From contig DATJSG010000016.1 of the NCBI GenBank assembly GCA_035504195.1, positions 284,828 to 348,827 of the forward strand: a DNA stretch of 64,000 nucleotides, read 5' to 3'. The position numbers and the translations under genes are program-made. The notes below the pieces were generated by a model that was not told where the DNA came from, did no database searches, and was given only the letters and a program-made list of their open reading frames with translations. This DNA is from Terriglobales bacterium (GTDB lineage Bacteria > Acidobacteriota > Terriglobia > Terriglobales > Acidobacteriaceae). Below, piece by piece: positions 8,367 to 28,967 of this stretch. The first letter of the stretch is position 1. Each line of letters starts with the position of its first letter.

Positions 8367-8470
8367 CGCCAACCTCCAAGCCAAACAATTCTTCCCGTCT
8401 GATTTTGCACGACAACATACTCTACAGGAACCAGATGAAAGGACGCCACGCTCGGACCCTCCGGATGGTT

Positions 8471-8503
8471 TCCTTCGTGTGACTTCGTGTCCTTCGTGGT
8501 TAA
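8471..8503. repeat. short tandem CTTCGTG-type repeat element
   Basis: The sequence is TCCTTCGTGTGACTTCGTGTCCTTCGTGGTTAA. Related copies lie at 41181-41205, 44921-44945 and 49251-49285. Confidence 0.5.
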
Positions 8504-8544
8504 CGCCTTTTCTCTCCCATCCTGAAACGGCTACACTCCCAATC

Positions 8545-9546
8545 ATGCCCGGCAAGCGCGCCTTCGAAGCCCAAGTCGCCGCCCTGGACGACCTTCGCCA
8601 AGGCACGGCCGAAGCGCGCGCCAATTCGCTGCGCAAAGCCCTCGGACATCGCAATAATTTCATCGTGGCCAAAGCCGCCGACCTGATTCGCGAATTCATT
8701 CAGGAACCAGCCATAGCCAATCTTGAGCCCGACCTGCTGACGGCTTTCGGCCGCTTCTTCGACGATCCGGTGAAAAACGACCCGCAATGCTGGGCCAAAA
8801 ACGCCATCAGCCGCACACTAGCCGCCCTGGAACTTCAGGATGAAACCGTCTTTCTCCGCGGGATGCGCCACATCCAACTGGAGCCGGTCTGGGGAGGTCA
8901 GTCTGACACCGCCGGCACTCTACGCGCAACCTGCGTCCTCGCGCTCGTCCAGTGCCGCAGCCTGACAGAGCGGGATCTGCTGGCGCATCTGGTCGAAATG
9001 CTGGCTGACAAAGACAAGACCGTGCGAGTCGAGGTGGTTCGGGCCATCGAACAGGTTGGCTCAACCTCGGCGAGCCTGCTTCTCCGGCTCCGAGCCGTTC
9101 TTGGCTCAGCCGGAGCAGGCGCCGACGAACCGGAAGTCCTCGGCGCCTGTTACAGCGGAATCCTGCGCATCGAAGGCGCGGCTGCGATTCCGTGGGTTCG
9201 CCGATTTCTCGAAGCCGCCGACGACAACGCCGCCGAAGCAGCCCTGGCCATTGCGGGAACTCATTCCCCCGAAGCCCTCGACGTCTTGCGGAAGACTTTC
9301 CTGAAGGCTCACGATCCCTGGTGGCGCTCAGTCTTGCTCTCTGCCATCGCACTCACCCGTCAGGACACTGCGATCGAGTTTCTCCTCGAACTCGTCGGCA
9401 AAGAATCGCTCGAGGCCAAGGCCGCAATCGAGGCCGTCCTCCGCTCCGTGCCCTCAAAAGAGGTAATCCAACGTCTGGAGAAGCTGGTCGAAGGCAATCC
9501 ACGCCTGAAGCGAATCGTCGCCGCGCAACGAAAGGGATCATCGTAA
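8545..9546 (+). CDS. HEAT/ARM-repeat protein
   Basis: Met23 of ORF 8479..9546. The protein is all-helical with repeated A/L-rich roughly 30-40 aa units (e.g. DKDKTVRVEVVRAIEQVG). Confidence 0.55.
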   Translation: MPGKRAFEAQVAALDDLRQGTAEARANSLRKALGHRNNFIVAKAADLIREFIQEPAIANLEPDLLTAFGRFFDDPVKNDPQCWAKNAISRTLAALELQDETVFLRGMRHIQLEPVWGGQSDTAGTLRATCVLALVQCRSLTERDLLAHLVEMLADKDKTVRVEVVRAIEQVGSTSASLLLRLRAVLGSAGAGADEPEVLGACYSGILRIEGAAAIPWVRRFLEAADDNAAEAALAIAGTHSPEALDVLRKTFLKAHDPWWRSVLLSAIALTRQDTAIEFLLELVGKESLEAKAAIEAVLRSVPSKEVIQRLEKLVEGNPRLKRIVAAQRKGSS

Positions 9547-9607
9547 AAGGCTTGGCGTGGCAACATGAAAGCTACCCTCTGAGAGCCGACCGCTTTCTCC
9601 TGCTATA

Positions 9608-10540
9608 TTGTTCGCTGAGGTCAGAAAGCGCGTGCCCCCTGAAAAATTTCGCGTGGCTCTGGTGCAGATGTCCTGCGGCCCGGAGCCCGAGCAGAATCTC
9701 GAAAAGGCCCTCAGCCGCGTCGCCGACGCCGCCGGCCGCGGCGCGAAAGTAGTCTGCCTGCCCGAACTTTTTCAGACGCAATATTTCTGCCAGCGCGAAG
9801 ATCATTCTCTGTTCGATCTCGCCGAGCCAATCCCCGGACCTAGCTCCGAAAAGCTCTCCGCCGCCGCCCGCAGCAACGGAGTTGTCCTGATCGCTTCTTT
9901 GTTTGAAAAGCGCGCCGCCGGCGTCTACCACAACACCGCTGCCATCTTCGACAGCGACGGCACGCTCCGCGGCCTCTACCGCAAGATGCATATCCCCGAC
10001 GACCCTCTCTACTACGAGAAGTTCTATTTCACTCCCGGCGATCTCGGCTTCCGCGCGCTCGAGACCAGCGCCGGCAAGCTGGGCACGCTCGTTTGCTGGG
10101 ATCAGTGGTATCCCGAAGGCGCCCGCCTCACCGCGCTGCAGGGCGCCAGCATTCTCTTCTATCCCACGGCGATCGGTTGGCATCCTTCCGAGAAGGCTGA
10201 GTTCGGCGTAGCTCAACACGACGCCTGGCGTACCATTCAGCGCTCCCACGCCATCGCCAACGGAGTCTACGTCGCCGTGGTGAACCGCGTCGGCTTTGAA
10301 ACCGGCAACGTCCGCGGCAAGTCAGCTCCCGGCCAGGGATTGGAATTCTGGGGCGCGTCTTTTTTCTGTGACCCCTTCGGTAGAGTCCTCGCCGAAGCCT
10401 CGCATGATCGCGAAGAAATCCTGGTCGGCGACGTCGACCTGAAAGCGCTCGAAGACATCCGCCGCAACTGGCCGTTCCTGCGCGACCGCCGCATCGACGC
10501 CTACGCACCGATCACGAATCGTCTGCTCGATGGACGGTAA
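9608..10540 (+). CDS. aguB: N-carbamoylputrescine amidase (nitrilase superfamily)
   Basis: VALVQM...CLPELF...YRKMHIPDDPLYYEKFYFTPGD...LVCWDQWYPEGAR...FYPTAIGW are hallmarks of NCP amidase. The start is TTG, or nearby. Confidence 0.85.
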   Translation: MFAEVRKRVPPEKFRVALVQMSCGPEPEQNLEKALSRVADAAGRGAKVVCLPELFQTQYFCQREDHSLFDLAEPIPGPSSEKLSAAARSNGVVLIASLFEKRAAGVYHNTAAIFDSDGTLRGLYRKMHIPDDPLYYEKFYFTPGDLGFRALETSAGKLGTLVCWDQWYPEGARLTALQGASILFYPTAIGWHPSEKAEFGVAQHDAWRTIQRSHAIANGVYVAVVNRVGFETGNVRGKSAPGQGLEFWGASFFCDPFGRVLAEASHDREEILVGDVDLKALEDIRRNWPFLRDRRIDAYAPITNRLLDGR

Positions 10541-10638
10541 AATCGGGTCAATGAGTGTAACGGCTAACAACAGTTGTGCGAAAATACCCACGATGAAACG
10601 ATGCGCCGCTGAAAGAGACAAAACGGGGAGAGCATCGA

Positions 10639-11016
10639 GTGCCGCGATGGATAACCGCCCTTTGGCTGGCGTTTGTTGTCAGCCTAGCATTGACATCGAT
10701 AGTTATCGCCGTCCGGTTGAACTGTGACCCGGTCCGAACTCTCGGCTACCTCGTGGCCAGTTCTATACCCATCTTCGCATTGTCTGCTGTCGTGTACTTC
10801 GCGTTGTACGGGTTAAGCATATTGTTGGAGGGACTCGACTATCACAAGACCCACTGCGACGACAGCAAGCACTGGGGGCGGGACGGCGGACTTCATGCGA
10901 TGACCGTTCGGTCTGGCGAGGGGCAGATTGGCGTAAACATCCCAATTACACCGGAACCAGTTCGTCACGATCAACGTCCGCCCCTGGACTGCGTGATTTC
11001 TCATCCCGTGCAATAA
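10639..11016 (+). CDS. small membrane protein (hypothetical)
   Basis: 125-aa ORF with two predicted TM helices at the N-terminus. No family was recognised. Confidence 0.35.
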   Translation: MPRWITALWLAFVVSLALTSIVIAVRLNCDPVRTLGYLVASSIPIFALSAVVYFALYGLSILLEGLDYHKTHCDDSKHWGRDGGLHAMTVRSGEGQIGVNIPITPEPVRHDQRPPLDCVISHPVQ

Positions 11017-11025
11017 ACTACCCCC

Positions 11026-12216
11026 ATGCCCCGGTCCAGTAAGTCAGGTAACCCTTTAAGTGCTGCCCCGGCAGGTTCCGGCTACGCCATGCCCGCCGAG
11101 TGGGAGCCCCACGCCGCCACCTGGCTCGCCTGGCCGCACAACCACGACGACTGGCCGGGAAAATTCGAGCCCATCCCGTGGGTCTACGCCGAAATCATCC
11201 GCAACCTCGCCCGGCACGAACGCGTCGACCTGATCGTGAACAACGCCCGCGCCCAAACCCAGGCCCGCAAGTTGCTGAAGCTCGCCAACGCGCTCACGCC
11301 CAACGTCCACTTCCATCGCTGGCCCACGAACCGCGTCTGGCTCCGCGACTCCGGCTGCATCTTCTTGAAACGGGAAGGGCACGACTTTAGTCGTGCCGAT
11401 CAGGACCACAAGAAAGTTGGGGCTTCAGCCCCTGGGGGAACCGTCGCTCTCAAGTTCCGTTTCAACGCCTGGGCGAAATATTCCAACTGGCGACTCGACG
11501 ACAAGATCGGCAGCCTGATGGCGCACACCAAAACCCCCACTTCTCGCGCCCAGAACGCGCGAGAAATGGGGCACCCGCATTCTCACTTGCACGAAATTCA
11601 CCCCGTCTCCGCCGGCAAACACATCGTGCTCGAAGGCGGCTCCATCGACGTCAACGGCGCGGGCACCATCCTCACCACCGAGGAATGCCTGCTCAGCAAA
11701 ATCCAGCAGCGCAATCCGCACATGACCCGCGTCCACTACGAAAAAGCGTTCGCCGATTATCTCGGCGCACCCAACGTCATCTGGCTCGGACGCGGCATCG
11801 TCGGCGACGACACTCACGGCCACGTCGACGACCTCACCCGCTTCGTCTCCGCCGACGCCGTCGTGACCATGGTCGAGCCCAACTCCCGCGACGCCAACCA
11901 TGCCCCCTTGCTCGCAAATTTGCGCCGCCTGCAAGCCGCACGCGATCAAGCCGGCAGAGCACTCAACATCGTCGAACTCCCCATGCCCGGTCCTGTCGTC
12001 TTCGAAGGCCGCCGCCTCCCCGCCAGCTACGCCAATTTCTACATCGCCAATAAAGTCGTGCTGGTCCCGGTCTTCAACGATGCCAACGATCGCATCGTTC
12101 TCAACACTTTGGCGGGCGTGTTCCGCACGCGGCAGGTCGTTCCCATTTATGCGGGAGATTTGGTCTGGGGCCTCGGGACTCTGCATTGCATGACGCAACA
12201 ACAACCAGCAGAATAG
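11026..12216 (+). CDS. aguA: agmatine deiminase
   Basis: MPAEWEPHAATWLAWPH, WLRDSG, LEGGSIDVNGAGTILTTEECLL and the C-terminal GTLHCMTQQQP are agmatine deiminase motifs. It contains two in-frame repeat-derived segments (see the repeat features at 11372 and 11534). Confidence 0.85.
   Translation: MPRSSKSGNPLSAAPAGSGYAMPAEWEPHAATWLAWPHNHDDWPGKFEPIPWVYAEIIRNLARHERVDLIVNNARAQTQARKLLKLANALTPNVHFHRWPTNRVWLRDSGCIFLKREGHDFSRADQDHKKVGASAPGGTVALKFRFNAWAKYSNWRLDDKIGSLMAHTKTPTSRAQNAREMGHPHSHLHEIHPVSAGKHIVLEGGSIDVNGAGTILTTEECLLSKIQQRNPHMTRVHYEKAFADYLGAPNVIWLGRGIVGDDTHGHVDDLTRFVSADAVVTMVEPNSRDANHAPLLANLRRLQAARDQAGRALNIVELPMPGPVVFEGRRLPASYANFYIANKVVLVPVFNDANDRIVLNTLAGVFRTRQVVPIYAGDLVWGLGTLHCMTQQQPAE
11372..11440. 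repeat. REP-like palindromic element embedded in the aguA CDS
   Basis: The hairpin GGCACGAC-ttta-GTCGTGCC and GGGGCTtcAGCCCC are present. The 17-mer GAAGGGCACGACTTTAG is identical to intergenic 1431-1447. The segment encodes EGHDFSRADQDHKKVGASAPGG. Confidence 0.6.
11534..11576. repeat. hairpin repeat (CCCCACTTCTC...GAGAAATGGGGCACCC family) embedded in the aguA CDS
   Basis: The sequence is CCCCACTTCTCGCGC-ccagaac-GCGCGAGAAATGGGGCACCC. The 17-mer GAGAAATGGGGCACCCG recurs at 56452-56468. Related hairpins lie at 33512-33545 and 49113-49156. Confidence 0.65.
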
Positions 12217-12540
12217 CCGTCAGTCGTCGCCGCACTGTTCGCGACTCACCCTCTTCTGTCATCCTCAGGCAGCGGAGTCCCCGGCGAAGCCGAGGACTCC
12301 CAAACGAAGCGCCTCTGCACTTGGCCTCCCCACCTGTCTACTTTCGTGGTCTTGACGGGCCCACCGCTTTCAGCTAATTCTATGAGCTTAACCTTAGTGC
12401 ATTGACAGTCGCGCCAGGCTCCTAACTCCTTGCGGCTCAAGATTTTGACTCCTAAGTTCTTTAGATCATGGAATTTGGCGGGAATTTCCCGCTAAGCTGG
12501 TGATTCTACAGATTCGGGGGGGAGGGGGAGGGGGTACCCA

Positions 12541-12560
12541 CATAAGCGCTAACTTAAGGA
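12541..12560 (+). repeat. left terminal inverted repeat
   Basis: CATAAGCGCTAACTTAAGGA; its exact reverse complement is at 24734-24753. Confidence 0.85.
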
Positions 12561-12593
12561 GCAGGTTTTACGGCACCGACCTATGCTTGATGA

Positions 12594-13147
12594 ATGCGTA
12601 CCTCTGAAGAAGACTGGAATGTACTCGCATCCTTGCTTCCCGCAGGATGGCAGCAAATGGCGTGGCAGTCGGGTGCGCTGGAGCGATTGCGTCGGTTTTC
12701 ATCGCTCGACGTGCTGTTGCGTACTCTGATGCTTCATGTGGCAAGGGGTTACTCCTTGCGAGAGACGGTACTTCGCGCCAAACTGGCGGATTGGACGGAC
12801 ATTTCGGACGTGGCCTTGCTCAAGCGTTTTCGCCATAGCGAGGAATGGTTGCGTCTCTTTTGTATCGAATTGCTTCGGGAAACCGTCGCGTACCAGCTCG
12901 AAGAAGATATCACTCGGACGATCCGGATTGCACTATCGTCAGAGAGCCAGGCAAGACGGGGAGCCAATGGAGAATTCTGTATAGCATCAGACTACCGAGT
13001 TTCGTGTGTGATTTTTTCGAGGTGACCGCCACGATTGGCGAAGGCAGCGGAGAGTCACTGAACCGTCTGCCCGTGGGTCCGCGCGAATTTATTCTTGCGG
13101 ATGCCGGCATAGCACATCAAAAAGGTCTTTTCGGTCATTCGACATAA
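12594..13147 (+). pseudogene. IS4-family-like transposase, N-terminal fragment with frameshift
   Basis: ORF 12594..13025 (DWNVLASLLPAGWQQMAWQSGALERLRRFSSLDVLLRTLMLHVARGYSLRETV...ISDVALLKRFRHSEEWL) resembles an IS4 N-terminal domain. Homology-like sequence continues in another frame (12845..13147: TIVREPGKTGSQWRILYSIRLPSFVCDFFEVTATIGEGSGESLNRLPVGPREFILADAGIA). It then stops about where the GH3 gene ends. Confidence 0.6.
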
Positions 13148-14754
13148 TGACCGTTCAGCTGGCTTGACCAGCCATCGAGCGAACTGAGACCCGCCGGCTT
13201 GATATCGCCCAGCCGCTTTCCCATATCCTGGAGCCGCTGGCAGTATGACCGATAAGCGTCATCCGAGACGCGGAACAGTCGCGGAGGGCACAATTGGCCG
13301 AGCCGCCGGCAATAGGCGTAGTGCGGATTCGCCGAGAGAAGGCCATCCAGTTTGGCACACATTTCCTCGGTAGCGTCAGCGTTGATGTAAAGCGTGTAAC
13401 GCGATTCTTTCGTATCCACGTCGGGCGCAAGCATGGCGAAAGATGGCCGAGTCTGCGCTTCATGAAATAGTTTCATCAAGACCGACGCCACAAATCCGTC
13501 GGATAATTTTTCTCCGACGTAGTCCGAGAGTTGCGCGGACTTGCCGACGAAACGAATAGATGGAGTTCGCCCCAGCATTCCGCCAACCACCACTCGATCA
13601 TCCAGGCGATAACGCCACAATCCCCCGCCGGTTGTGAGAATGACGTTGTACTCGTGATCTTGTTGGAGGTCTGATGAACAGCGTACCAGTCCGGCAGCAT
13701 CTTCAAATTCCAAATAGTGAGATCGAATGGCGAGCGGATGCTGGCCTTGAAACGGTATAGAAACGATACCCTCAGTTGCGATGAGCCCCTTGGGTTGGAC
13801 TACGACCGAGCCCAACGACTGCGCGAGTTCGGCGGCGGCACCAGCGGCGTGCCCGTCGGTCCAACAGCTCAGGATTCTGAGTTTGGGCCACACCTGATCA
13901 ATCTTCAGAGGACCACTTATCCGCAATTCTTCAGAACGGCGAGGGTCGGAACGAAACCGGATTTCTGCACGCGCTGCCGGGGGAAGGCGTTTCGCCACAG
14001 CACATGTCCCGGTGGCTATCTCTGCTAGGAGTTGAGTCCAGTGATCGACGATTGTTTGCAGCAGCAGCGAAAAGAAGGAGGGATGCCACACTGAGACGAG
14101 ACTCAGGTCCCTTCGTCGAAGCAAAAGCAATGCCGTGATGTAGCGCCAATCCTCCGTGGACGAAATGTGTTTAAGCTCAGACGGCACGGCCATGCTCGCA
14201 TCGATCAGCCGTTTATGCCACCTCCCGAGATATGCAGCGTCCTCATCAAACCCAACCGGTATCGACGAGCGCTCAACAAACTGAAACGGGTCCGCAATGG
14301 CAGGGGAAATAGACCAATACGCTACGCCCAGCACCGCCTTAGGATGCATACGATAAAGGTCAAAAATCCAGGGACCGATCGCCTGGTTGAGCTCCGAATG
14401 CATCGAGGCAGTATAGGGAATGAGTTTGCGCGCGGCCGTTGAGCCACTGGAAGGCACCAATCGCCTCACCGGCTCATCGGTCAGCACTCGAGTTTCCCCC
14501 TGTCGGATTCTCTCAATCCACGGCCGCAGATCATCGTAGTTACGAATGGGAACGCGACTGGCAAATTCCGCAGGGGTACATTCCTCCGACAATCCGTGCT
14601 CTTGGCCAAAGGCAGTGCGTGCGTTCTTTCTGAGGAACGAGCGAAGCACCTGCTCCTGAGCAGCAGCCGGATCCTGCAGAGCGGTGGCGAAGGCAGCATA
14701 GGAACGGCTGCTGGCAAGCCACCATAACGAGTTTGCGAGAGCAGCCTTCACCAT
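13135..14754 (-). CDS. GH3-family acyl-adenylate-forming amido synthetase-like protein
   Basis: Start at Met24 (MVKAALANSLWW). RNYDDLRPWIERI and VPSSGSTAARKLIPYT (the SSG(T/S)T..K.IP adenylation motif) are typical of bacterial GH3 proteins. Its start overlaps the upstream stop (ATGGTGA). Confidence 0.7.
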   Translation of the reverse strand: MVKAALANSLWWLASSRSYAAFATALQDPAAAQEQVLRSFLRKNARTAFGQEHGLSEECTPAEFASRVPIRNYDDLRPWIERIRQGETRVLTDEPVRRLVPSSGSTAARKLIPYTASMHSELNQAIGPWIFDLYRMHPKAVLGVAYWSISPAIADPFQFVERSSIPVGFDEDAAYLGRWHKRLIDASMAVPSELKHISSTEDWRYITALLLLRRRDLSLVSVWHPSFFSLLLQTIVDHWTQLLAEIATGTCAVAKRLPPAARAEIRFRSDPRRSEELRISGPLKIDQVWPKLRILSCWTDGHAAGAAAELAQSLGSVVVQPKGLIATEGIVSIPFQGQHPLAIRSHYLEFEDAAGLVRCSSDLQQDHEYNVILTTGGGLWRYRLDDRVVVGGMLGRTPSIRFVGKSAQLSDYVGEKLSDGFVASVLMKLFHEAQTRPSFAMLAPDVDTKESRYTLYINADATEEMCAKLDGLLSANPHYAYCRRLGQLCPPRLFRVSDDAYRSYCQRLQDMGKRLGDIKPAGLSSLDGWSSQLNGHYVE

Positions 14755-15485
14755 GGTGCTAACCCAGCCGCCATGCGGCGGCCAGCTGGCGTCAGGTTGT
14801 GCGGCGAGAGTTCGGTGAGACACACCAACTCATCACCTCGCTCGTGAGCCGGATTACGGGACAGAAAGAACTTGACGTGAGAGTCTCTATGGCGGCCCGC
14901 GGGGACCTCGGCAAGCGGACCGCGCAACCTTTGTGGATTTTGGAAATGGACCACCCCGGTCCTCGCATCATATGCATGGCCGAATCTTTCGGCGGCTAAC
15001 AGGTCGGTCAAACGCTTCCAGTATGGCGGTGTTTGCGAATCAAAGCGTGGGAAGAATTCTCGCCAGAACAGCGGTAAGAAACGATAGGTACGAAAACCGG
15101 AGGTGATCAAGAGCCATAGATAAAGACCACGCCGGTAACGATTGCGCAACTCGGCTACTGCTGCGATCCAGGTTCGGGGAAGGGTCGACGCGTTCCAACC
15201 TTCTGAAGCAACGATTGTGTCTCCCGAATAGACCACGCTGTATATTTCGCCACCGACTGATGTCTCGTACACGAGAAGCGTTGAGAACCCGACGAAGCAA
15301 CCGCCCTTCTCCAGCAAGATGACCCAATTTTTTTCCGAAAGATCGCGCTGGAATTGGGCCGGGGTCACACCTTCAAAGTGTTGGGACAGCAAGCCGTACA
15401 TCTGACTCAGATCGTGCTCCTGAAGGAGTCGGCGCGCAACAAGACGGCCAGTACAGGCCGCTTCAATCTCCGCTGCGGAGCTCAA
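14748..15485 (-). CDS. GNAT-fold acyltransferase-like protein (function unknown)
   Basis: 245-aa ORF with a TTG start that overlaps the upstream stop (TTGA). The central segment WVILLEKGGCFVGFSTLLVY...YSGDTIVASEGW looks like a GNAT core. The family assignment is from memory only. Confidence 0.5.
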   Translation of the reverse strand: MSSAAEIEAACTGRLVARRLLQEHDLSQMYGLLSQHFEGVTPAQFQRDLSEKNWVILLEKGGCFVGFSTLLVYETSVGGEIYSVVYSGDTIVASEGWNASTLPRTWIAAVAELRNRYRRGLYLWLLITSGFRTYRFLPLFWREFFPRFDSQTPPYWKRLTDLLAAERFGHAYDARTGVVHFQNPQRLRGPLAEVPAGRHRDSHVKFFLSRNPAHERGDELVCLTELSPHNLTPAGRRMAAGLAPW

Positions 15486-16651
15486 AGGGTTGCCACCTCC
15501 GGGAAAAACAACCGTTCATCGAGCTTGGGAGTAAAAGCGGCGCCGTCCTCCCAATACACAGCGTAAATGCGGCTCACATATTCGCGCACACGAAACACCC
15601 TCCGGAGATGCGCCAGACGAGGGTCGCGCGAATCAAAGCCAATCACCACGTAGTCGGCGGACCGGGCGCTAGGGGAGGTCCGCACGAGATTGATCAGACA
15701 TTCCGTGAGTTCCGGCTGATCAGACCGCGCGGCTAAATGGGAAACATAAACGTGCGAAAGCGCGCTGCCAATCTCCGGCAGGAGAGGCGTGCCGAGGAAC
15801 CTAGCCGCAACATTGCAGAATGGCCTCGCCCATTTCAAAACCCCTGAATATCCGCGTACCACGCTCTGCTTCATTGCTCTCTGGTCCCAGATGGCAGCAC
15901 ATCCCACCTGTGTCTCAAGACTCGAATACAAAGTACAGAAATCATCGGCACAAATTTCGCTTGCCGACCAAACCGGCGCAAATTGGTATTCACGATTGTT
16001 GCGGTTCAGGATTTCCAGGATATCGAGGCTGCTGCTGTGCGAACCGGGCAGCGCTCGAAGATCTCCCTTTCGAAGCAACCGCCGGGTACGGGATGCAGGA
16101 TGATTGAATTTCCAGAAATGACTCCGGCGGATGATCAGTGTCACCAAGTCGCCGAGAAACCTGTAGGTCGGCATTCCCGTGAGTCCTTTCTCCAGGAATC
16201 TGAGCGCTGCCTGATTGCCAGCAACGATGCTGCTCAGGTAGATCAGAGGCCCGCCCTGGTCATGGATATTCCTAAAGAGGTCATAGCCGCGGCGAAGGAT
16301 TTCAGCGCGGCCTTTGCACGACCGATCCAATCGCAGCCCGCTGAGATAACCAACCCGCATCGGCTCGCCATTAATAAATCTTTGACGAGCTGAGATGCTG
16401 CCAGTGGCCACAACGCGTCCGTTTTCAATGGCAACAATGGTTTGGTGTTCCGATCCTTCGAATTTGGCGGCAGCGAAAAACTCGGGCTCGCGCTCCAGGG
16501 ATACGCTGATGGAGCCCGGTATTGGATTCTCGCGGAGTAGGCGCCGGAGCGCCGCATCGTGGTCCGCGGTAGCCAACTCAAAATGCAGGCCATTATTAAG
16601 GCGTTTATCATTGCCAACGATTAATTGGCCTGAAGCAACGGACCCGTCCAC
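15482..16651 (-). CDS. two-lobed GNAT-like protein (function unknown)
   Basis: 389-aa ORF. FELATADHDAALRRLLRENPIPGSISVSLEREPEFF and VGYLSGLRLD resemble an N-acyltransferase fold. The start is uncertain: ATG 16651 overlaps the upstream gene by 31 nt, and an in-frame TTG lies further downstream. Confidence 0.5.
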   Translation of the reverse strand: MDGSVASGQLIVGNDKRLNNGLHFELATADHDAALRRLLRENPIPGSISVSLEREPEFFAAAKFEGSEHQTIVAIENGRVVATGSISARQRFINGEPMRVGYLSGLRLDRSCKGRAEILRRGYDLFRNIHDQGGPLIYLSSIVAGNQAALRFLEKGLTGMPTYRFLGDLVTLIIRRSHFWKFNHPASRTRRLLRKGDLRALPGSHSSSLDILEILNRNNREYQFAPVWSASEICADDFCTLYSSLETQVGCAAIWDQRAMKQSVVRGYSGVLKWARPFCNVAARFLGTPLLPEIGSALSHVYVSHLAARSDQPELTECLINLVRTSPSARSADYVVIGFDSRDPRLAHLRRVFRVREYVSRIYAVYWEDGAAFTPKLDERLFFPEVATL

Positions 16652-17979
16652 GATTCGTCCCCCAATGGATATCCATCACGCAAGCCTACATCGCCTCGGT
16701 GCATTGCATTGATGAGAAAGAAATTGCGCCACATGAAGCCATCGGCGCGATTGATGGGATCGAAACCTCTGCGAACGATGCTGCGCCACGAGTAAAACTT
16801 TCGCCGCGCCTCCAGACAACAACGTTGCAGGTCCACCGGAGTCATTCCCGCCGGACGAAAAGGAATGTCATTGTATCGATAACGATCATTGAGCCACCAG
16901 GCATCATAGATCAGTCGCCCGCCGGCCTGGAGGCGCTTGTACAACGGCGTGCCAGGAAATGGTGTGAGGTGGTTAAAAGCAGCAATGTACATCGAATTCG
17001 ACTGAGCAAACTTCACTGTTTGTTGAAAACTTTCCGGAGTGTCGCGATCATACCCAAAAATGAACGTTCCATAGAGACGAATGCAATACTTTCGCAAGTT
17101 TTCGAGCGCTTTCGCAAAGCCGCCGCGCATTAAGTTGAAGGATTTATTCATGTCCTTCAAGTTGTCGGAATCGAGACTTTCAAACCCAATCAACACTCCC
17201 ATACAGCCGCTGCGTACCAGCAACTCCAGGAATTCCTCGTCGTGAGCCGCATTTATGCTCGCCTGGCTTACCCAGCGGACTTTCGCCGGAATCAACTCGC
17301 GAAAGAATTCCTTCGCCTGAGCGAGATTTGATGTGATGTTGTCATCTACGAAAAAGAAGAGCTTTCTGTGTTTCTTCACGGCGTTGACTTCCGCAACAAT
17401 ATCGTCCAAGGGCCGGCGGGTTTGAGTGGCGCCGAAAACCGTCTGCACCGCGCAGAACTCGCATCGAAAGTGACAGCCCCGGCCTGCTTCAACAAGGCCG
17501 ATCGGTAGATATCGCTTTCCGCGAAAGATAGAGCGATCGGGTTTGACTTTCGCCAATAATGGACGACCTTCTGCCCTGTATCGTTCTCGCAATCGCGCTG
17601 ACCGAGCGTCGTCAATCACTTGCTCCCATAGACTCTCCGCCTCGCCCACAACGACGGCCTCCGCGTACTTCGCGACCTCATCGGGCACAAGCGAGGCATG
17701 AAAGCCTCCCATCACCACCGGTATCTTGCGGCGACGGTATTCACTGGCGATCTGATAGGCACGCTTCGCGGTATAGGTTTCGACGCTGATCGCGACAAGG
17801 TCGGTCGGTTCATCAAACGGAATGCGCTCCATACGATCGTCGTAAAACCTCACTTCCACACCCTTGGGCGTAAGGCCGGCAATGGTCGCCGCCGGCAACG
17901 ACTCCATCTGCCAAGTCCGGACATAACTGCTGTCGCCATTCCGGCGCCCGATGCAGGGATGGACAATTGTCAGTCTCAT
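16621..17979 (-). CDS. B12-binding-domain radical SAM protein (class B, DUF4070-type C-terminus)
   Basis: Start at Met28 (MRLTIVHP) overlapping the upstream stop (ATGA). It has an N-terminal Rossmann-like B12-binding region (DLVAISVETYTAKRAYQIASEYRRRKIPVVMGGFHAS). The CxxxCxxC motif is in GRGCHFRCEFCAV. Confidence 0.8.
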   Translation of the reverse strand: MRLTIVHPCIGRRNGDSSYVRTWQMESLPAATIAGLTPKGVEVRFYDDRMERIPFDEPTDLVAISVETYTAKRAYQIASEYRRRKIPVVMGGFHASLVPDEVAKYAEAVVVGEAESLWEQVIDDARSARLRERYRAEGRPLLAKVKPDRSIFRGKRYLPIGLVEAGRGCHFRCEFCAVQTVFGATQTRRPLDDIVAEVNAVKKHRKLFFFVDDNITSNLAQAKEFFRELIPAKVRWVSQASINAAHDEEFLELLVRSGCMGVLIGFESLDSDNLKDMNKSFNLMRGGFAKALENLRKYCIRLYGTFIFGYDRDTPESFQQTVKFAQSNSMYIAAFNHLTPFPGTPLYKRLQAGGRLIYDAWWLNDRYRYNDIPFRPAGMTPVDLQRCCLEARRKFYSWRSIVRRGFDPINRADGFMWRNFFLINAMHRGDVGLRDGYPLGDESWTGPLLQAN

Positions 17980-19385
17980 TGCGCTTCGGGAAGGTTCAAA
18001 GAGAGGGACCGAGGAACTGCTTCGGCGCTCGTCATTTGATCGGAGCGGCCGATGATCCAATCGCAGTTATAGAACTTGCTCAGGTGGTTCGAGTAGAACC
18101 GATAGCCGAGGTTGGTGGCCAACCGTACGCCCCAGGGGGCCGGGGAATGCGGCAAGCGGGCCAGGATCGAGGAAACGCTGTAAGCGTGTTTCCAGGCAAT
18201 TTCAGTGCCTCGTTCCAGCTCTCGAATGCTCATCCGCTTGGGTTGAAAGACGACGTGTTGGCCATCGTAGAGTTCCCAGTTGCGGGTTAGGATTCGGCCT
18301 TCACTCTCGAGTCGGCTGTAAAGAGCGGTTCCAGGAAACGGCGTCACAATTGCGAACCGAGGAAGATCGATTTTCGCGGCCACGGCAAACTTCGCGGTTT
18401 TCATGAAGACGTCGGCATCATCGCCGTCCAATCCGAAAACGAAGCATCCCTGCAACGCGATGCCATGATCGTGAAGATTTTCAACTATGCGAACAAAGTG
18501 CTCAGGAGAATTGAACGCTTTTTTGCTTGCACGCAAGTTCTCAACTGAAACGGACTCCAGCCCCATGAGCAATCCGCGACAGCCGCTTCTCGCGGCCATG
18601 TCCAACAACTGCGGATCTTCCGCGAGCAGTACGGTTGCCAACCCATACCACTGCACACGCATGGGGATCAGCGCCTTGAATAAGCGAATTGCGTAGCCGC
18701 GATCGGCGATGAGATTGAGGTCTACAAAAATCAGTTTTCGAGCGCCATGCTGCCGGATGTCCTCGACTACGTCTTCGACAGGTTTTTGTAATGGCTTGCG
18801 TCCCCAGGCCGCCGGCACAACGCAGAAGTCACAGTTATGCACGCAACCACGCGTAGCCTCAAAAACACTATTCGTCAGAAAACGTCTTGAGGGGAGGAGA
18901 TCGCGACGCGCAAACGGCCGCCTCGCAAGGTCGAGATCGGGAGCCTGGTCGTATCTTCGCTGCATCCGGCCAGCCGCAAAGTCGCGAAGCAATTGTGGCC
19001 AGGTATCTTCGGCATAGCCAACGATGATCGAATCTGCGTGTGGCTGCGCGTCATCGGGAACGAGGGTGACGTGAGGTCCACCTAGAACTGTAGCAATCCC
19101 GCGTGATCTGAAATGTCTTGCCAGGTCATACGCGCGCGGGGCAGTGCCTGTAATTACAGTCAATCCGACAAGGTCGGCATCAAGGGATTCTGGAACTTCC
19201 TGGATGCCCTCATCGATGAGCGTGACCTCAGCGTTCATTTGAGGAGGGATCAGGGAGGCAAGAGTAGTCAGCGTCAACGGTTGGTAACGCAGAGACTTAC
19301 GGAAAATTCCTCCACGATGGCGGTAAAGCGGCCCTTTCGGAGAAACGAGAGCCAGTCGCAAGGGTCGTCCATCACGAGGCAACAC
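17976..19385 (-). CDS. B12-binding-domain radical SAM protein (paralog of 16621..17979)
   Basis: GTG start preceded by GGAGGTGG. The B12-binding-like region is DLVGLTVITGTAPRAYDLARHFRSRGIATVLGGPHVT. The CxxxCxxC motif is in TRGCVHNCDFCVV. The overall layout is collinear with the downstream paralog. Confidence 0.8.
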   Translation of the reverse strand: MLPRDGRPLRLALVSPKGPLYRHRGGIFRKSLRYQPLTLTTLASLIPPQMNAEVTLIDEGIQEVPESLDADLVGLTVITGTAPRAYDLARHFRSRGIATVLGGPHVTLVPDDAQPHADSIIVGYAEDTWPQLLRDFAAGRMQRRYDQAPDLDLARRPFARRDLLPSRRFLTNSVFEATRGCVHNCDFCVVPAAWGRKPLQKPVEDVVEDIRQHGARKLIFVDLNLIADRGYAIRLFKALIPMRVQWYGLATVLLAEDPQLLDMAARSGCRGLLMGLESVSVENLRASKKAFNSPEHFVRIVENLHDHGIALQGCFVFGLDGDDADVFMKTAKFAVAAKIDLPRFAIVTPFPGTALYSRLESEGRILTRNWELYDGQHVVFQPKRMSIRELERGTEIAWKHAYSVSSILARLPHSPAPWGVRLATNLGYRFYSNHLSKFYNCDWIIGRSDQMTSAEAVPRSLSLNLPEAQ

Positions 19386-19536
19386 GCGATACCACCTCCG
19401 GCCAACCGATCAGCCACTGGAAAAACTGCTTGAAATCCTTGGCGGAGATATTATAGTTATCCTCCACTTTGTCAAGTAATGCTGCCTCAGACAGTCGAAA
19501 ACAAGATTGAACGGAGCGACGAGTAGCAAATTTGTT

Positions 19537-20466
19537 ATGGCGAATGCGCCTCCACGTCTGTCGATCGTGCAGATTGCGGACCACGCCCATCGTTGCCGTA
19601 CCGACCGATCTCCTCTCGAAACTGACCTTCCCATCGATTTCACAAAACCTTTCGTCTGTCCCAGTTTGACAGCCCTCTATTACACCCCATTTTGGAGCAA
19701 ATTGGAGCCCACGGATCAGTTACGGTACACGCAACTATCCGCTCTGTCGTTCAACGAGTTGATCGCATGGTTTGAAAGAGGGTTTAGCTCAACGTTGCGG
19801 GCACTTATGCGAAGCGATCGGTTGCCGGAGGAGTTGAAATCACTCTTGCCAGGTTTTCTCGAGGACGAGTGCCGGCATCAGGAGATTTGGTGGACTCTCA
19901 ACCGTCGTGTCGATCCCGTGCGATATTCACGCAATATTGCGTCGATCTCTAAGATAGCTCCGGCGGGGCGCGCTTTGATGAGTTGGCTGGCCAGCCGTCC
20001 GCTGGATTATCCCGTTGTCATTTGGCTCATGCTTGTTCTGGAAGAACATGGCAACGAGATTGCTCGCCGTTGCGCAGCAAGACGACCCGACGAGATCGAA
20101 CCCCACTTCGCAGCGGCCTATCTCGCGCACGTTCGCGATGAGATCCGCCATGTTCAGATCGACTGGCATTTGCTGGATTCGCTGTGGCCGTCGCTCCGGG
20201 GATGGCGTCGGCGCATGAACATCGAGCTCTTCCGGTTGGTGATCGCACGCCTGTTGTTTAAGACAGAGCATGCTTCGATGTCGGTTGTGGAAGAACTTGT
20301 CCGGGAAAGGCCCCGACTTCGGCTATTGCTGCCGCAACTTCGCACACAGCTGCGCGAAGTCAGTCAGGACCGGGAATTTAGAAGCATGATGTTGTCCGCC
20401 CGATCGACTCCTATTGTTTTCCATCTTTTGGATTTGTTTCCCGAGCTCGAGAGCGTAATCGCGTGA
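19537..20466 (+). CDS. AurF-like ferritin-fold diiron oxygenase
   Basis: Carboxylate/His motifs are spaced as in diiron proteins: LEDECRHQE, LEEHGNE, VRDEIRHVQ. The start is ATG 19537, or alternatively TTG 19507. Confidence 0.55.
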   Translation: MANAPPRLSIVQIADHAHRCRTDRSPLETDLPIDFTKPFVCPSLTALYYTPFWSKLEPTDQLRYTQLSALSFNELIAWFERGFSSTLRALMRSDRLPEELKSLLPGFLEDECRHQEIWWTLNRRVDPVRYSRNIASISKIAPAGRALMSWLASRPLDYPVVIWLMLVLEEHGNEIARRCAARRPDEIEPHFAAAYLAHVRDEIRHVQIDWHLLDSLWPSLRGWRRRMNIELFRLVIARLLFKTEHASMSVVEELVRERPRLRLLLPQLRTQLREVSQDREFRSMMLSARSTPIVFHLLDLFPELESVIA

Positions 20467-21383
20467 CCAGAGTCCACGAAATCCCTAACGCAGCCAATGC
20501 GGTTGTCGTGGCGGTGCAACTCTCTGTCGTAGCCCTCTGCATCGCGGAGTGCAGAACGGCCAACGGCTGGTGGTGCATTGTGATCGGAGCCATGTTCGTA
20601 TTGACCTTGAATTCGGTTTATTTTGCAATTCATGAGGCGGAGCATGGCCTCTTGTTCTCCAACCGCAGATGTAACGAACTAGCGGGGACGATTCTCTCTG
20701 TCCTGCTTCCCGCCCCATACACTTTCATCCGCAATGTCCATCTCGCACACCATGTGCATAATCGTTCGGACGACGAAGTCTTTGATCTGTACTTCGAAGA
20801 AGATCCGGCCTGGTGGAAGAAACTGCAGTTTTTCGGCATTCTCACTGGAGGCTTTTGGCTGAGCCTGGTTGTCGGCAATATTGCGCTCGCTGTGGTACCC
20901 ATGCGATGGCTCTCGAAAGCCGTGGAGATCGACCGTCCTTCTGCGGCGGTGGTGCGCTATGTCAATCGGCGAAATCAGTGGTGGATCCGGGCAGAGGCCT
21001 GGATGGTCCTTCTTTTTCATTCGACAGTTTGCTGGCTGCTAGGGCCGCGGGCAATCAGGTACGGTCTGATGTACCTTGTCTTCGGTATGAGCTGGTCAAC
21101 GCTGCAGTATGTTCATCATTATGGGACTTGCCGGGACGTGCTGCGAGGCGCGAAGAATTTGCGTTACGGGTGGCCGCTTGATGTGCTGTGGCTCAATCAT
21201 GGCTGGCACTTGACTCACCATCTTCATCCCACGGTGTCATGGCTGCATTTGCGCCGAGTCGCGAGAGAGGATGAGCCTCGCGTGGAATCACTGGGCAGCG
21301 CTTATCTGAAAATGTGGCGAGGTCCACTGCTGACCAGCGAACGTGTGCAGAATCGCTATGACGGATACGTTGTACAACAGTAA
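20463..21383 (+). CDS. membrane fatty-acid desaturase family protein
   Basis: The histidine boxes are HEAEHG, HLAHHVH and HLTHHLH, and there are several TM helices. The GTG start overlaps the upstream stop (GTGA). Confidence 0.75.
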   Translation: MTRVHEIPNAANAVVVAVQLSVVALCIAECRTANGWWCIVIGAMFVLTLNSVYFAIHEAEHGLLFSNRRCNELAGTILSVLLPAPYTFIRNVHLAHHVHNRSDDEVFDLYFEEDPAWWKKLQFFGILTGGFWLSLVVGNIALAVVPMRWLSKAVEIDRPSAAVVRYVNRRNQWWIRAEAWMVLLFHSTVCWLLGPRAIRYGLMYLVFGMSWSTLQYVHHYGTCRDVLRGAKNLRYGWPLDVLWLNHGWHLTHHLHPTVSWLHLRRVAREDEPRVESLGSAYLKMWRGPLLTSERVQNRYDGYVVQQ

Positions 21384-22068
21384 CGCGGTTGCGATTGACT
21401 GGCCGGTCCACCGTCGACTGATCATGGTCCTGCTCGGCTATATTCCAATGCTTTTGTCAGGCCTCGTCGTATCTTGTATCGTACTTCCCGCGCGACGGTG
21501 GGGCCTGGTCAAAGGAGTGGCATGCGGCGTAATTGTCTTCTATGTTTTTCCGCCGCTGGCTTTTCGCGTGGCGTCCCTTTTATTCAAACCTCAGCCGGGA
21601 CGGCATTCGGTCGCATCCGCCGATTTCCTGCGTTGGTGGTTGTCTGCGCAATGGCAAGTGATTTTTAATCGCTTGCCAATGTTCGAGGAACTGCTTCGAA
21701 TCGTTCCCGGACTCTACTCAGCCTGGCTTCGTCTGTGGGGGGCGAAGATCGGCTCACTCGTGTATTGGAGTCCCGGAGTTGCGGTACTGGATCGAGCCTT
21801 CGTATGCATCGGCAGCCGCGTGGTGTTTGGCGCGGGCGTGCGACTCAATCCTCATGTGATTGTTCCAGGTAAGAAGCGGGAAGCTCAACTGTGGCTCGCT
21901 CCCGTGACCTTGGGCGATGACGCCCTGATCGGAGGTTACAGTCTGATTACCGCCGGCTGTACCGTTCCGGCCGGAGTTTCTCTGCCAGCCGGCAAATACG
22001 TTCGACCGTTTTCCACCTGGCAAGATAACGAATCGGCCCAAAGCCGATACGAGGGCGATTCGGATTGA
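21358..22068 (+). CDS. membrane-anchored hexapeptide-repeat (left-handed beta-helix) acyltransferase
   Basis: It has N-terminal TM helices followed by imperfect hexapeptide repeats (IGSRVVFGAGVRLNPHVIV ... VTLGDDALIGGYSLITAGCTVPAGVSL). The start is uncertain (21343, 21358 or 21424). The first two options overlap the desaturase 3' end. Confidence 0.55.
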   Translation: MTDTLYNSNAVAIDWPVHRRLIMVLLGYIPMLLSGLVVSCIVLPARRWGLVKGVACGVIVFYVFPPLAFRVASLLFKPQPGRHSVASADFLRWWLSAQWQVIFNRLPMFEELLRIVPGLYSAWLRLWGAKIGSLVYWSPGVAVLDRAFVCIGSRVVFGAGVRLNPHVIVPGKKREAQLWLAPVTLGDDALIGGYSLITAGCTVPAGVSLPAGKYVRPFSTWQDNESAQSRYEGDSD

Positions 22069-22751
22069 GCCGATCTTTACATTCCGCGTTACTGAGCCGA
22101 CTTCGATCGAACGTGGGATTGAAAATTGTTATGTTGCTCACCTTGCCCGTTGCCGTGACAGTTGGCTATCTTGCGATCCAGCGCGCTGTTGTTTTTCCAG
22201 ACGGTAGAGTTCCTCTGACGTGGTTCGACCACGTTATTCCTTTTCAGCCGCGTTGGGTCTGGGTCTATCTCTCGATGTATTTACTCAATCCCATTGGGCC
22301 TCTGTTCACCCGGTCGCGCGAGGACTTATTCCGGTATGCCCGCGGCATTCTGTTCTTTTTCGTTTGTGGATTCGTGTGCTTTGTATTCTTTCCAGTCCCG
22401 GGACCGCGGCCGCCTCGCGCGGACGATTTTTGGCTGTATCAGAGGCTTATTCTCGTTGATCGCCCCTACAATTCCTTTCCCTCCTTGCATGCCGCGTGTG
22501 CAGTTTATGCGGTTCTCTTCGCGGCCTACGCATCGTGCGATACATCGCGTCCCCATCTGAGAATTTCGCTGCTTTCTCTGGCATGGCTGTGGGTTGGCCT
22601 GATCTTGTATTCCACCGTAGCTACTCGTCAGCATTTCGCGATCGACTTGCCCGCCGGAATGTTCCTGGGCTGGCTTGCGCAATCGCTTTTTGTCAGTCGG
22701 AGCTCGCGTGCATCGAGCAAGACAGCTTTCGTCGACAGAGAGGCTGCGTGA
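22065..22751 (+). CDS. PAP2-superfamily membrane phosphatase/phosphotransferase
   Basis: It is polytopic. SFPSLHAACAV and TRQHFAIDLPAG match PAP2 C2/C3-type motifs, as in PAP2_C / IPC- or SM-synthase-like proteins. The TTG start overlaps the upstream stop (TTGA); an alternative ATG is at 22131. Confidence 0.6.
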   Translation: MSRSLHSALLSRLRSNVGLKIVMLLTLPVAVTVGYLAIQRAVVFPDGRVPLTWFDHVIPFQPRWVWVYLSMYLLNPIGPLFTRSREDLFRYARGILFFFVCGFVCFVFFPVPGPRPPRADDFWLYQRLILVDRPYNSFPSLHAACAVYAVLFAAYASCDTSRPHLRISLLSLAWLWVGLILYSTVATRQHFAIDLPAGMFLGWLAQSLFVSRSSRASSKTAFVDREAA

Positions 22752-23797
22752 TTCAGGAATCCCAATGCGCCATGCTCGCGCCTCCCCGGGCGGAAGCCTT
22801 CCCCGACTCACCTATGGGCTGGTACATACTTGGCCAATCGCACGAAATAACGAGTCGACCGAAAGCTATGGAGTTATTCGGCGAACGGCTTGTTTGCTTC
22901 CGTCTGTCCTCAGGAAGAGCGGTAACGATGGATGCGCGCTGTTGGCATCTAGGCGCCGACCTTTCCAAAGGCGTGGTTGCGGGTGATCAGATCGTTTGCC
23001 CGTTTCATGGTTGGCGATATGGAGCATCCGGAGATTGCGAGTTCATACCAAATCAGGAAGGCATCCCCGCCGCCCGCCAGCGGACTTATCAGACAGAAGA
23101 GCATGCGGGCTACGTGTTTGTCTTTCCATGCGATGTCTGCGACTACCCACCGCCATTCTTCGCAAGTATCGACCGGGCCGAACTCATCGCGGCTCCGTCG
23201 TTTGAATTTTTCATCGAGTGTCCTTGGTGGTTGGTAGGCACGAATGGCTTCGATCTTCAGCACTTCACCGGCTTACATCATCGCCGCCTCGTGGGCTTGC
23301 CAGCGATTGAATCACCCCATCCGGCAGCGCGGAGAATCGTGACGACCTTTGAGATTTGCGGAAGCAATTGGCAAGATCGACTCACACGAAGGGTTGCAGG
23401 TTCCCGAGTGACCATGGACGTGACCATTTGGTCTGGGACACTGGCGTTCGTCATGGCGCACTTTCACGATTCGGCGACTGCGGATCCCCGCTCCACGCGA
23501 ACCACCAGTTACGGCATGACCGAGATCCGGGCCCTTTCATCTCCGCGGGAACAGAGATCGCACGTGCGAGTAACGATCTTCCGCAAAAGGCGGCCCGGGT
23601 TAGCCATGCTTGACTGGCTGGACGTGCGAATCAAGCGATATTTCATTCATGCCTTCCTGAAGCCTGATACACTCCTGCTGACCCGGGCCCGGTACAACCG
23701 TGACCACTTGATCCATGCTGACCGGCAGATGATCGACTATCTTTGCTGGCTGGCGGCTGTTTCCAGCAAACGTTCTAATGCGAAGGAGCCGACATGA
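22748..23797 (+). CDS. Rieske [2Fe-2S] non-heme-iron oxygenase
   Basis: The GTG start overlaps the upstream stop (GTGA). The Rieske motif is CWHLGADL...CPFHGWRY. The mononuclear iron motif is NGFDLQHFTGLHH (D-x2-H-x4-H). Confidence 0.75.
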   Translation: MIQESQCAMLAPPRAEAFPDSPMGWYILGQSHEITSRPKAMELFGERLVCFRLSSGRAVTMDARCWHLGADLSKGVVAGDQIVCPFHGWRYGASGDCEFIPNQEGIPAARQRTYQTEEHAGYVFVFPCDVCDYPPPFFASIDRAELIAAPSFEFFIECPWWLVGTNGFDLQHFTGLHHRRLVGLPAIESPHPAARRIVTTFEICGSNWQDRLTRRVAGSRVTMDVTIWSGTLAFVMAHFHDSATADPRSTRTTSYGMTEIRALSSPREQRSHVRVTIFRKRRPGLAMLDWLDVRIKRYFIHAFLKPDTLLLTRARYNRDHLIHADRQMIDYLCWLAAVSSKRSNAKEPT

Positions 23798-24438: not shown

Positions 24439-24468
24439 CGAAAAGCCTTCGCAAAAATTAGGACGACG

Positions 24469-24585
24469 ATGAAACGGATCGCTATTCTCAGCGATCCAGA
24501 ACCGGCTCAGATTCTTGCCTTGTGGACACATTCGCAAAAGAGCATGGTGTCCATTCTCGGCTCAGCACGGAAGAATGCCGACTAG
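24469..24585 (+). pseudogene. possible C-terminal remnant of the IS4-like transposase
   Basis: The short ORF MKRIAILSDPEPAQILALWTHS... weakly resembles the FKRLKS..L...DP..A..WL segment near IS4 transposase C-termini. It lies just inside the right IR. The similarity is judged from memory only. Confidence 0.3.
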
Positions 24586-24733
24586 ACAACTAGTTCGCTA
24601 GAAGATCGCACCGGAAACTGGCTGTCGCTATACTTAACCCGTACACCGTTAGACAACTCACACAATGCTCTAAACGGCGTTCCACGCGAGAAAGTCAGAC
24701 TCCAAACCGCAGTAAAGCATGCTTTCATCTACG

Positions 24734-24753
24734 TCCTTAAGTTAGCGCTTATG
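24734..24753 (-). repeat. right terminal inverted repeat
   Basis: TCCTTAAGTTAGCGCTTATG is the exact reverse complement of 12541-12560. Confidence 0.85.
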
Positions 24754-28965: not shown

Positions 28966-28967
28966 GG

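Follow-up and report, generated by a model that had tools for sequence, protein, structure and literature searches.

Locus anatomy of a five-gene radical SAM, GNAT and GH3 cassette

We analysed a 64,000-nt stretch of a Terriglobales (Acidobacteriota) metagenome-assembled genome (MAG; GCA_035504195.1, contig DATJSG010000016.1, positions 284,828 to 348,827), hereafter the window. A first-pass annotation made from the sequence alone had described here a minus-strand operon encoding two B12-binding-domain radical S-adenosylmethionine (SAM) proteins, two proteins resembling Gcn5-related N-acetyltransferases (GNATs) and a GH3-family adenylating enzyme. The open reading frame (ORF) listing and the sequence bore out this operon with its junctions and motifs: five overlapping, co-directional minus-strand ORFs, here called genes A to E, occupy positions 13135-19385 (Table 1). 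The stop codon of A overlaps the start of B in an ATGA (17979-17976), that of C overlaps the start of D in a TTGA (15485-15482) and that of D overlaps the start of E in an ATGGTGA (14754-14748); at the remaining junction, the start of C lies inside the end of B in a 31-nt overlap (16651-16621). The five-gene cassette is translationally coupled, and its operon anatomy is a direct observation.

The open frames of B (16621-18060) and E (13135-14823) extend beyond their ATG starts at 17979 and 14754, respectively. Gene A begins with the GTG at 19385, which has the ribosome-binding site GGAGGTGG upstream. One public gene call gives a shorter, 420-aa form of A, which is disfavored because the N-terminus added by the GTG at 19385 is conserved among orthologs.

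A divergent plus-strand operon of six genes (F to K, 19507-24438), overlooked by the first-pass annotation, is conserved together with A to E as one unit. The intergenic region between A and F holds the two best promoter-like matches of a 13-kb scan, one per strand: the minus-strand match at 19475-19448 reads TTGACA-16-TAATAT and the plus-strand match at 19430-19457 reads TTGAAA-16-TATAGT, both scoring 10/12 and both being matches to the consensus only. A scan of positions 11500-25500 against Rfam, including riboswitches such as those for cobalamin or SAM, returned no match (E <= 1).

Table 1. Features of the window discussed in the text, with positions counted from the first nucleotide of the window
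Feature	Position	Strand	Remarks
Gene A	17976-19385	-	B12-binding-domain radical SAM protein, 469 aa, GTG start, DUF4070 tail
Gene B	16621-17979	-	B12-domain radical SAM paralog of A, ATG start, 452 aa
Gene C	15482-16651	-	Tandem-GNAT N-acyltransferase-like protein, 389 aa
Gene D	14748-15485	-	Single-domain GNAT with ~100-aa conserved extension, 245 aa, TTG start
Gene E	13135-14754	-	GH3-family acyl-acid amido synthetase (predicted), 539 aa, ATG start
Divergent intergenic region between A and F	19386-19506	.	121 bp, promoter-like matches on both strands
Gene F	19507-20466	+	AurF-like diiron oxygenase; Pfam AurF 48.5 bits; 19-23 loci
Gene G	20463-21383	+	Membrane fatty-acid-desaturase-family protein; Pfam FA_desaturase 95.7 bits; three transmembrane-like segments
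Gene H	21343-22068	+	Membrane-anchored hexapeptide-repeat transferase; Pfam Hexapep 25.8 bits, under cut-off 27; 11-13 loci
Gene I	22065-22751	+	PAP2/PAP2_3 membrane phosphatase or phosphotransferase; PAP2_3 43.9 bits, PAP2 42.5 bits; transmembrane-like segments; 32-40 loci
Gene J	22772-23797	+	Rieske [2Fe-2S] oxygenase, 341 aa; Pfam Rieske 67.2 bits; 35-41 loci
Gene K	23794-24438	+	SnoaL/DUF4440-like protein, hydrophobic N- and C-terminal segments; 30-42 loci
Inverted repeat, left arm	12537-12560	+	Brackets cluster
Inverted repeat, right arm	24734-24757	-	23/24 complementary
IS4-like (IS421-type) transposase, N-terminal fragment	12594-13025	+	143 aa, inside repeat
Pyruvoyl arginine decarboxylase	4890-5435
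Deoxyhypusine-synthase-like protein	7191-8699	-
CN_hydrolase	9608-10540
Agmatine-deiminase-type PAD_porph	11026-12216
Transglutaminase-like protein	26614-27612	-
Alpha-E domain protein	27793-28791	-
Circularly permuted ATP-grasp	28968-30488	-
Phospholipase-B-like protein	30636-32117

The cassette is conserved across phyla

Using a GH3 alignment as query against one genome per GTDB species, we found at least 575 places that encode a relative; metagenomic relatives number in the thousands. We took the best 80 of these loci with 10-kb flanks, 66 of which had enough upstream sequence to be informative. By the phyla given in the genome records, the best 80 loci comprise 43 from Verrucomicrobiota, 23 from Acidobacteriota, 11 from Phycisphaerae and relatives, and one each from Gemmatimonadota, Chloroflexota (Limnocylindria) and Proteobacteria (a MAG). 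The carriers, hundreds of bacteria of soil and fresh water, represent six phyla or more, the acidobacterial ones belonging to Terriglobales, Thermoanaerobaculia, Vicinamibacteria, Holophagales and other groups. One carrier, Chthoniobacter flavus Ellin428 (L033), is in culture, which makes the function of the cassette directly testable.

All five genes were present in 64 of the 66 informative loci, an almost universal co-occurrence that speaks for the first-pass annotation. Gene order was compact and colinear in 58 loci, colinear with an insertion in 5 and rearranged in 1; recurrence of five genes in the same order goes beyond chance. Flanking genes were unrelated between loci: among 117 adjacent genes, any one Pfam family turned up in 3 at most, and because the outer genes differ from locus to locus, the cluster can be taken as a functional unit. 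Median identity to the window proteins was 73% for A, 75% for B, 40% for C, 56% for D and 46% for E, which makes the radical SAM pair by far the most constrained part; identity of A and B ranged from 63-82% across phyla, and 179 of the 469 positions of A were at least 97% conserved (52 sequences).

By sequence, no curated family covers the cassette. A literature search for GH3 proteins in combination with radical SAM, B12, GNAT or the host phyla (Verrucomicrobia) found no description of it. It was likewise not found by term searches in the text of two 2026 reviews, one of B12-dependent radical SAM enzymes and one of lipid-modifying radical SAM enzymes, the latter with sections on Tes, Mss, Gms, GrsA/B, Gmm, Cds, HpnH/J/P/R, Jaw5 and ladderane enzymes. 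Taken together, the cassette is a real, strongly conserved and uncharacterized new combination of known enzyme superfamilies. PADLOC defense models gave nothing relevant, with generic radical SAM matches of 27-31 bits to one candidate model.

Some genomes have two copies of the cassette, as does one Phycisphaerales MAG (L004 and L005). On one acidobacterial contig (L074/L075), a further GH3 gene lies 9.7 kb upstream of the one that belongs to the cassette.

Radical SAM pair

Proteins A and B carry the radical SAM motif CxxxCxxC as CVHNCDFC at residue 181 and CHFRCEFC at residue 169, respectively, and all three cysteines are 100% conserved in 52 orthologs of A and 59 of B. Protein A matched the Pfam models B12-binding (44.5 bits, cut-off 32.1), Radical_SAM (46.4 bits, cut-off 29.5) and DUF4070 (24.3 bits). 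Protein B matched Radical_SAM (57.6 bits, cut-off 29.5) and scored 31.9 bits against B12-binding (PF02310), 0.2 bits below the cut-off of 32.1. The two are paralogs (35% identity, E = 6e-78). Further cysteines are 93-100% conserved (C269, C314 and C441 in A; C9, C259 and C388 in B), and no auxiliary Fe-S cluster motif was recognizable among them.

This predicted architecture is class-B-like: a predicted N-terminal Rossmann-type B12-binding domain, a CxxxCxxC core and a length of ~450 aa are shared with QCMT/MgmA, HpnJ, BchE, PhpK, HpnP/R, GrsA/B and AprD4. B12-domain radical SAM enzymes of this kind often come as paralogous pairs that act sequentially, and A and B are likewise paralogs. With respect to Tes/Mss and Grs/Gmm, the comparison concerns architecture only; Tes works via auxiliary Fe-S clusters, and Grs and Gmm have a B12 domain (PMC13459092).

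In membership, A and B fall outside all curated clades as judged by their profile scores, the HpnJ and BchE clades named in the first-pass annotation included, an outcome in favor of that annotation. They scored 76-91 bits against the NCBIfam model of HpnJ (cut-off 578), 63-80 bits against BchE (cut-off 481), 46-52 bits against HpnR (cut-off 650), 54-72 bits against the ladderane-type model rSAM_ladder_B12 (cut-off 360) and 58-68 bits against QCMT (cut-off 360), and their scores against the curated equivalogs PhpK and AprD4 were also far under the cut-offs. Across curated NCBIfam radical SAM models, the shortfall was 4- to 10-fold.

When ortholog profiles were compared with the PDB, the closest solved relatives of A and B were QCMT (9CCB) and AprD4 (6FD2), at just 44-51 bits (~50 bits for protein B). 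QCMT is the B12-dependent glutamine C-methyltransferase of methyl-coenzyme M reductase; AprD4 is a dehydratase that has a B12-type domain and binds no cobalamin. Because these relatives are weak and AprD4 is cobalamin-free, neither methylation nor cobalamin use is a given for A and B, and the carbon methylation put forward in the first-pass annotation is one option among several. With ~75% identity across phyla and no characterized clade to join, A and B probably catalyze an undescribed reaction on a fixed substrate.

GNAT-fold and GH3 proteins

The remaining gene assignments, like those of the radical SAM proteins, held when examined by hidden Markov model or fold comparison. Protein C gave no significant Pfam or NCBIfam match (Acetyltransf_1 at 17.1 bits was below the cut-off of 20.7), and protein D passed one Pfam cut-off marginally (Acetyltransf_9, 26.2 bits, cut-off 25). 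Since sequence-profile searches of the PDB gave nothing meaningful for either protein, we assigned both folds by structure prediction. The AlphaFold model of C (predicted local distance difference test score, pLDDT, 89.4) is a tandem GNAT fold. Its top Foldseek matches were eukaryotic N-myristoyltransferases (NMTs; E = 4e-13, TM-score 0.53), and it also matched the mycobacterial tandem GNAT MAB_4324 (TM-score 0.55); the top alignments ran over ~400 columns at TM-scores of 0.51-0.55, so the tandem fold spans the whole protein. The model of D (pLDDT 90.7) shows one GNAT domain and a conserved ~100-residue extension, and matched AAC(2')-Ia, Eis-like proteins and NatD over ~120-140 residues with a Foldseek probability of 1.00. 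Relatives of D numbered 4006 at E <= 1e-5.

What C shares with NMT and Eis/MAB_4324 is the tandem GNAT fold and a strictly conserved C-terminal residue. Unlike them, C is bacterial and operon-encoded, and it has no similarity to them at the sequence level: no match to Pfam NMT/NMT_C or to NCBIfam was found, nor did the PDB profile search return an NMT. The C-terminus of C reads as an invariant ...PEVA(L/T)L, and the motif [PLV][ED]xAxL stands at the same end position in 120/120 close homologs and 143/144 representatives of 50%-identity clusters (263/264), within a family of 1620 representatives (E <= 1e-30). In the model, this tail has a pLDDT of 85. In NMT and Eis, the C-terminal carboxylate is the catalytic base, and a fixed C-terminus is what such a mechanism would predict. 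By analogy, the terminal carboxylate of C would probably act as its catalytic base, and the protein would then be the bacterial equivalent of this NMT/Eis-type mode of catalysis.

Protein E is, by sequence, a GH3 acyl-acid amido synthetase of the ANL superfamily with predicted adenylation-ligation activity. It matched the N, M and C domains of Pfam GH3 at 160.5, 44 and 39.2 bits (cut-off 23.6), and its best PDB sequence matches were the plant enzymes GH3.8, GH3.15 and JAR1. SSGST lies at residue 102. The residues of the conserved nucleotide-binding (ATP/AMP) motifs, SSGT/S...K..P, T-E, YRxxD and a C-terminal Lys, are kept in an alignment of 12 sequences (47-70% identity): P101, G104, S105, K110, L111, I112, P113, T327, E328, Y382, R383, L384 and D386 do not vary at all, and K519 hardly does. 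The only characterized bacterial GH3 is OlsH, which condenses a fatty acid and ornithine with ATP to give lyso-ornithine lipid (PMC12493201, PMC12971839). Protein E is not OlsH itself: it scored 36 bits against NF052613 (cut-off 620), over residues 23-85 alone.

These enzymes could also modify a peptide or protein, in the manner of ribosomally made peptides with post-translational modifications (RiPPs): C would acylate an N-terminus, A and B would C-methylate residues (cf. QCMT, Mmp10) and the GH3 protein would ligate a side-chain or C-terminal carboxylate. The best structural matches of C, protein N-myristoyltransferases, favor this reading, as does QCMT, the protein glutamine C-methyltransferase that is closest to B among solved structures; a macromolecular substrate that does not vary would also go with the very strong conservation of A and B. 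Selidamides and goadvionins are RiPP lipopeptides with GNAT-dependent acylation of amines, sometimes alongside radical SAM tailoring. The cassette differs from their systems in having no fatty-acid or polyketide synthase and no precursor peptide at any of the 80 loci: we clustered 8352 small ORFs from these loci, and the only ones conserved within the cluster or next to it were shadow ORFs of conserved genes, in line with the doubt about a RiPP pathway in the first-pass annotation. We also found no recurrent neighbor protein able to serve as substrate and no RiPP recognition, protease or transporter gene, the QCMT scores lie far below the cut-off, and the recurrent partners of the cassette are lipid-type membrane enzymes (see below). 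A peptide or protein product therefore strikes us as quite unlikely.

Divergent accessory operon

Homologs of gene G adjoin the cassette at 38 loci by clustering and 49 by tblastn; recurrence of the other accessory genes is given in Table 1. Across loci, genes F to K form two partly alternative sets, and the window has both. In two Vicinamibacterales MAGs (L059, ~4411-15550; L082, ~4483-17100), the eleven genes all point the same way in one array, with the Rieske gene inserted between A and B; no other single observation speaks as strongly for the oxygenases working in the same pathway. The best NCBIfam match of gene J was the sterol monooxygenase SdmA (52.8 bits, cut-off 600), and gene H showed a weak match to the Pls/PosA terminal domain. 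Transmembrane-like segments were found in G, H, I and K and in none of the five core proteins.

Beside the SnoaL and PAP2 genes, 21 loci carry a gene for a ~335-aa protein (e.g., L004:1743-2750) that is absent from the window. This protein has no Pfam or NCBIfam match; its S-L-S-K-G stretch could be a hydrolase nucleophile elbow, and it might be a counterpart of the O-acyltransferase OlsI.

Signs of horizontal acquisition

A 24-nt inverted repeat, 23/24 complementary, occurs in two copies in the window (0 expected from shuffles) and encloses an IS4-like fragment and both operons (11 genes). The fragment aligned over 99% of its ORF to annotated IS4-like IS421-family transposases on plasmids, at 28.5% identity (tblastn, E = 7e-6), has no Pfam match and breaks off 110 nt from the GH3 stop codon. 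The bracketed cluster has a GC content of 55.3% compared with 58.9% for the remainder, the lowest among equal-sized stretches of the window. Together, the inverted repeat, the insertion sequence fragment and the low GC content suggest a decayed composite-transposon-like structure, at whose repeats no target-site duplication was seen.

The closest relative, L003, matches the products of the cluster genes at 77-94% identity, and it has none of the flanking genes of the window and no copy of the inverted repeat. The window GH3 protein is 58-60% identical to Phycisphaerales versions, compared with 44-49% to most other acidobacterial ones. In combination with the repeat, the IS4-like remnant and the low GC content, the flanks of L003 and these GH3 affinities point to acquisition of the cluster by this genome as one unit, carried on a transposon-like element that has since decayed. 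Directly outside the left repeat arm lies a G-rich tract, GGGGGGGAGGGGGAGGGGG (12516-12534).

These results bear on a further, speculative suggestion of the first-pass annotation, that the enzymes methylate chains or form C-C bonds in making the membrane-spanning or branched lipids found in Acidobacteria (here taken as iso-diabolic acid and branched glycerol dialkyl glycerol tetraethers). Such a role would suit a window from a Terriglobales MAG, and B12-domain radical SAM enzymes do methylate or cyclize lipid chains, for example HpnP/R, GrsA/B and Gmm (PMC13459092). However, Verrucomicrobiota and Phycisphaerae supply 43 and 11 of the 80 best loci, and the present genome appears to have received the cluster recently by horizontal transfer. 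Moreover, Mss proteins, the known bacterial synthases of membrane-spanning lipids, are homologs of Tes, which uses auxiliary Fe-S clusters rather than cobalamin (PMC13459092), and the constant need for a GH3 protein and two GNATs would be left unexplained. We regard this link to acidobacterial lipids as unsupported and highly improbable.

Proposed product of the cluster

We tentatively propose, with a confidence somewhat short of even, that genes A to E are the constant core of a self-contained and horizontally mobile cluster, which makes an amide-linked, N-acylated amino-acid-derived lipid that is tailored by the radical SAM enzymes and has no ribosomal precursor; each step of this scheme we infer. 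An N-acyl amphiphile is the most economical reading because the cluster combines three amide-bond formers, two radical enzymes and membrane partners with the lack of a precursor peptide, nonribosomal peptide synthetase (NRPS) or polyketide synthase (PKS), and because OlsH offers a precedent. Of the products named in the first-pass annotation, the N-acyl amino acid or lipoamino acid is thus the best available reading, and it gains from the OlsH work (PMC12493201).

In this scheme, C would transfer an acyl group from acyl-coenzyme A or acyl carrier protein to the primary amine of an amino-acid-type scaffold, probably with its C-terminal carboxylate as base. E would adenylate the carboxylate of a fatty acid, as OlsH does, or that of the N-acyl amino acid, and ligate it to a second amine or amino acid, and D would cap a further amine with a short acyl group. 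A and B could each functionalize one unactivated carbon, C-methylation being the commonest outcome for their architecture and other chemistry being possible. The accessory set (desaturase/hydroxylase, PAP2, Rieske, diiron, hexapeptide transferase and SnoaL-like proteins) may then work on the product in the membrane by hydroxylation, desaturation or a change of head group.

A close known parallel is OlsH/OlsI of Singulisphaera acidiphila, in which a GH3 gene likewise stands in an operon with acyltransferases and ATP-driven coupling of a carboxylate to an amino acid starts an aminolipid (PMC12493201); both systems occur in bacteria of the Planctomycetes-Verrucomicrobia-Chlamydiae group. The window cluster differs in lacking a gene for an OlsI-type alpha/beta-hydrolase O-acyltransferase, and the cassette has two radical SAM proteins and two GNATs, of which OlsHI has none. 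By analogy, the cassette may work like the OlsHI aminolipid pathway without being a member of it.

Several observations weigh against an aminolipid product. The core consists of five proteins predicted to be soluble, so it demands no lipid by itself, and desaturase-family membrane enzymes can use free amino acids, as a weak NCBIfam match to the arginine hydroxylase GntB illustrates. With a TM-score of only 0.53 and 12% identity, the structural match between C and NMT may reflect generic tandem-GNAT topology. A and B may not use cobalamin, given the narrow miss of B against the Pfam cut-off and the cobalamin-free AprD4. Finally, A and B are far more conserved than C, D and E, which would also fit a cofactor-like or macromolecular substrate.

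Some of these points would suit a soluble specialized metabolite instead, for instance a signal or metallophore, or else a small, modified amide resembling a peptide, with the membrane enzymes acting on a small molecule or in export. Antibiotics and other natural products are typically tailored by pairs of paralogous radical SAM enzymes of the B12 type where such pairs occur (e.g., CysS, TokK). In addition to the absence of transmembrane segments from the core, the cluster is mobile and patchily distributed, and its accessory sets differ between lineages as natural-product tailoring genes do. Yet we found no transporter, regulator, NRPS, PKS or resistance gene among the recurrent neighbors, and A and B are more alike across phyla than is usual in secondary metabolism. 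Of the recurrent partners, four are integral to the membrane or anchored in it, and the only characterized bacterial GH3 makes a membrane lipid (PMC12493201). A soluble product is in our view less likely than a lipid, with a low but appreciable probability.

Returning to the aminolipid, a bolder version would see the cluster as a hitherto unrecognized mobile pathway, widespread among Verrucomicrobiota, Acidobacteriota and Phycisphaerae of soil and fresh water, for a new class of radical-SAM-alkylated N-acyl aminolipids, in which an NMT/Eis-type long-chain N-acyltransferase and the GH3 protein build the amide backbone, and PAP2_3 and the desaturase lead to a sphingolipid-like phospho-aminolipid made without serine palmitoyltransferase. 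We offer this version as a speculation that is rather less probable than not, at roughly a one-in-a-few level of belief. Bacterial GH3 proteins were tied to membrane-lipid synthesis only in 2025, with OlsH the one characterized, and the cassette is a second and far more elaborate GH3-centered gene set. The phyla that carry it dominate soils and peat, and their lipidomes hold many unidentified aminolipids.

Neighboring genes in the window

Four polyamine-type genes adjoin the cluster on its left side (4890-12216; Table 1). Such genes were found beside the cassette in none of the 80 other loci, and since the adjacency is not kept there, it looks incidental. Beyond the right repeat arm lies a three-gene minus-strand run (26614-30488) encoding a circularly permuted ATP-grasp protein, an Alpha-E domain protein and a transglutaminase-like protein, with a phospholipase-B-like gene beside it. 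The sole tRNA gene of the window, a tRNA-Ser (CGA) on the minus strand (26391-26480), lies 1.6 kb past the right repeat arm.

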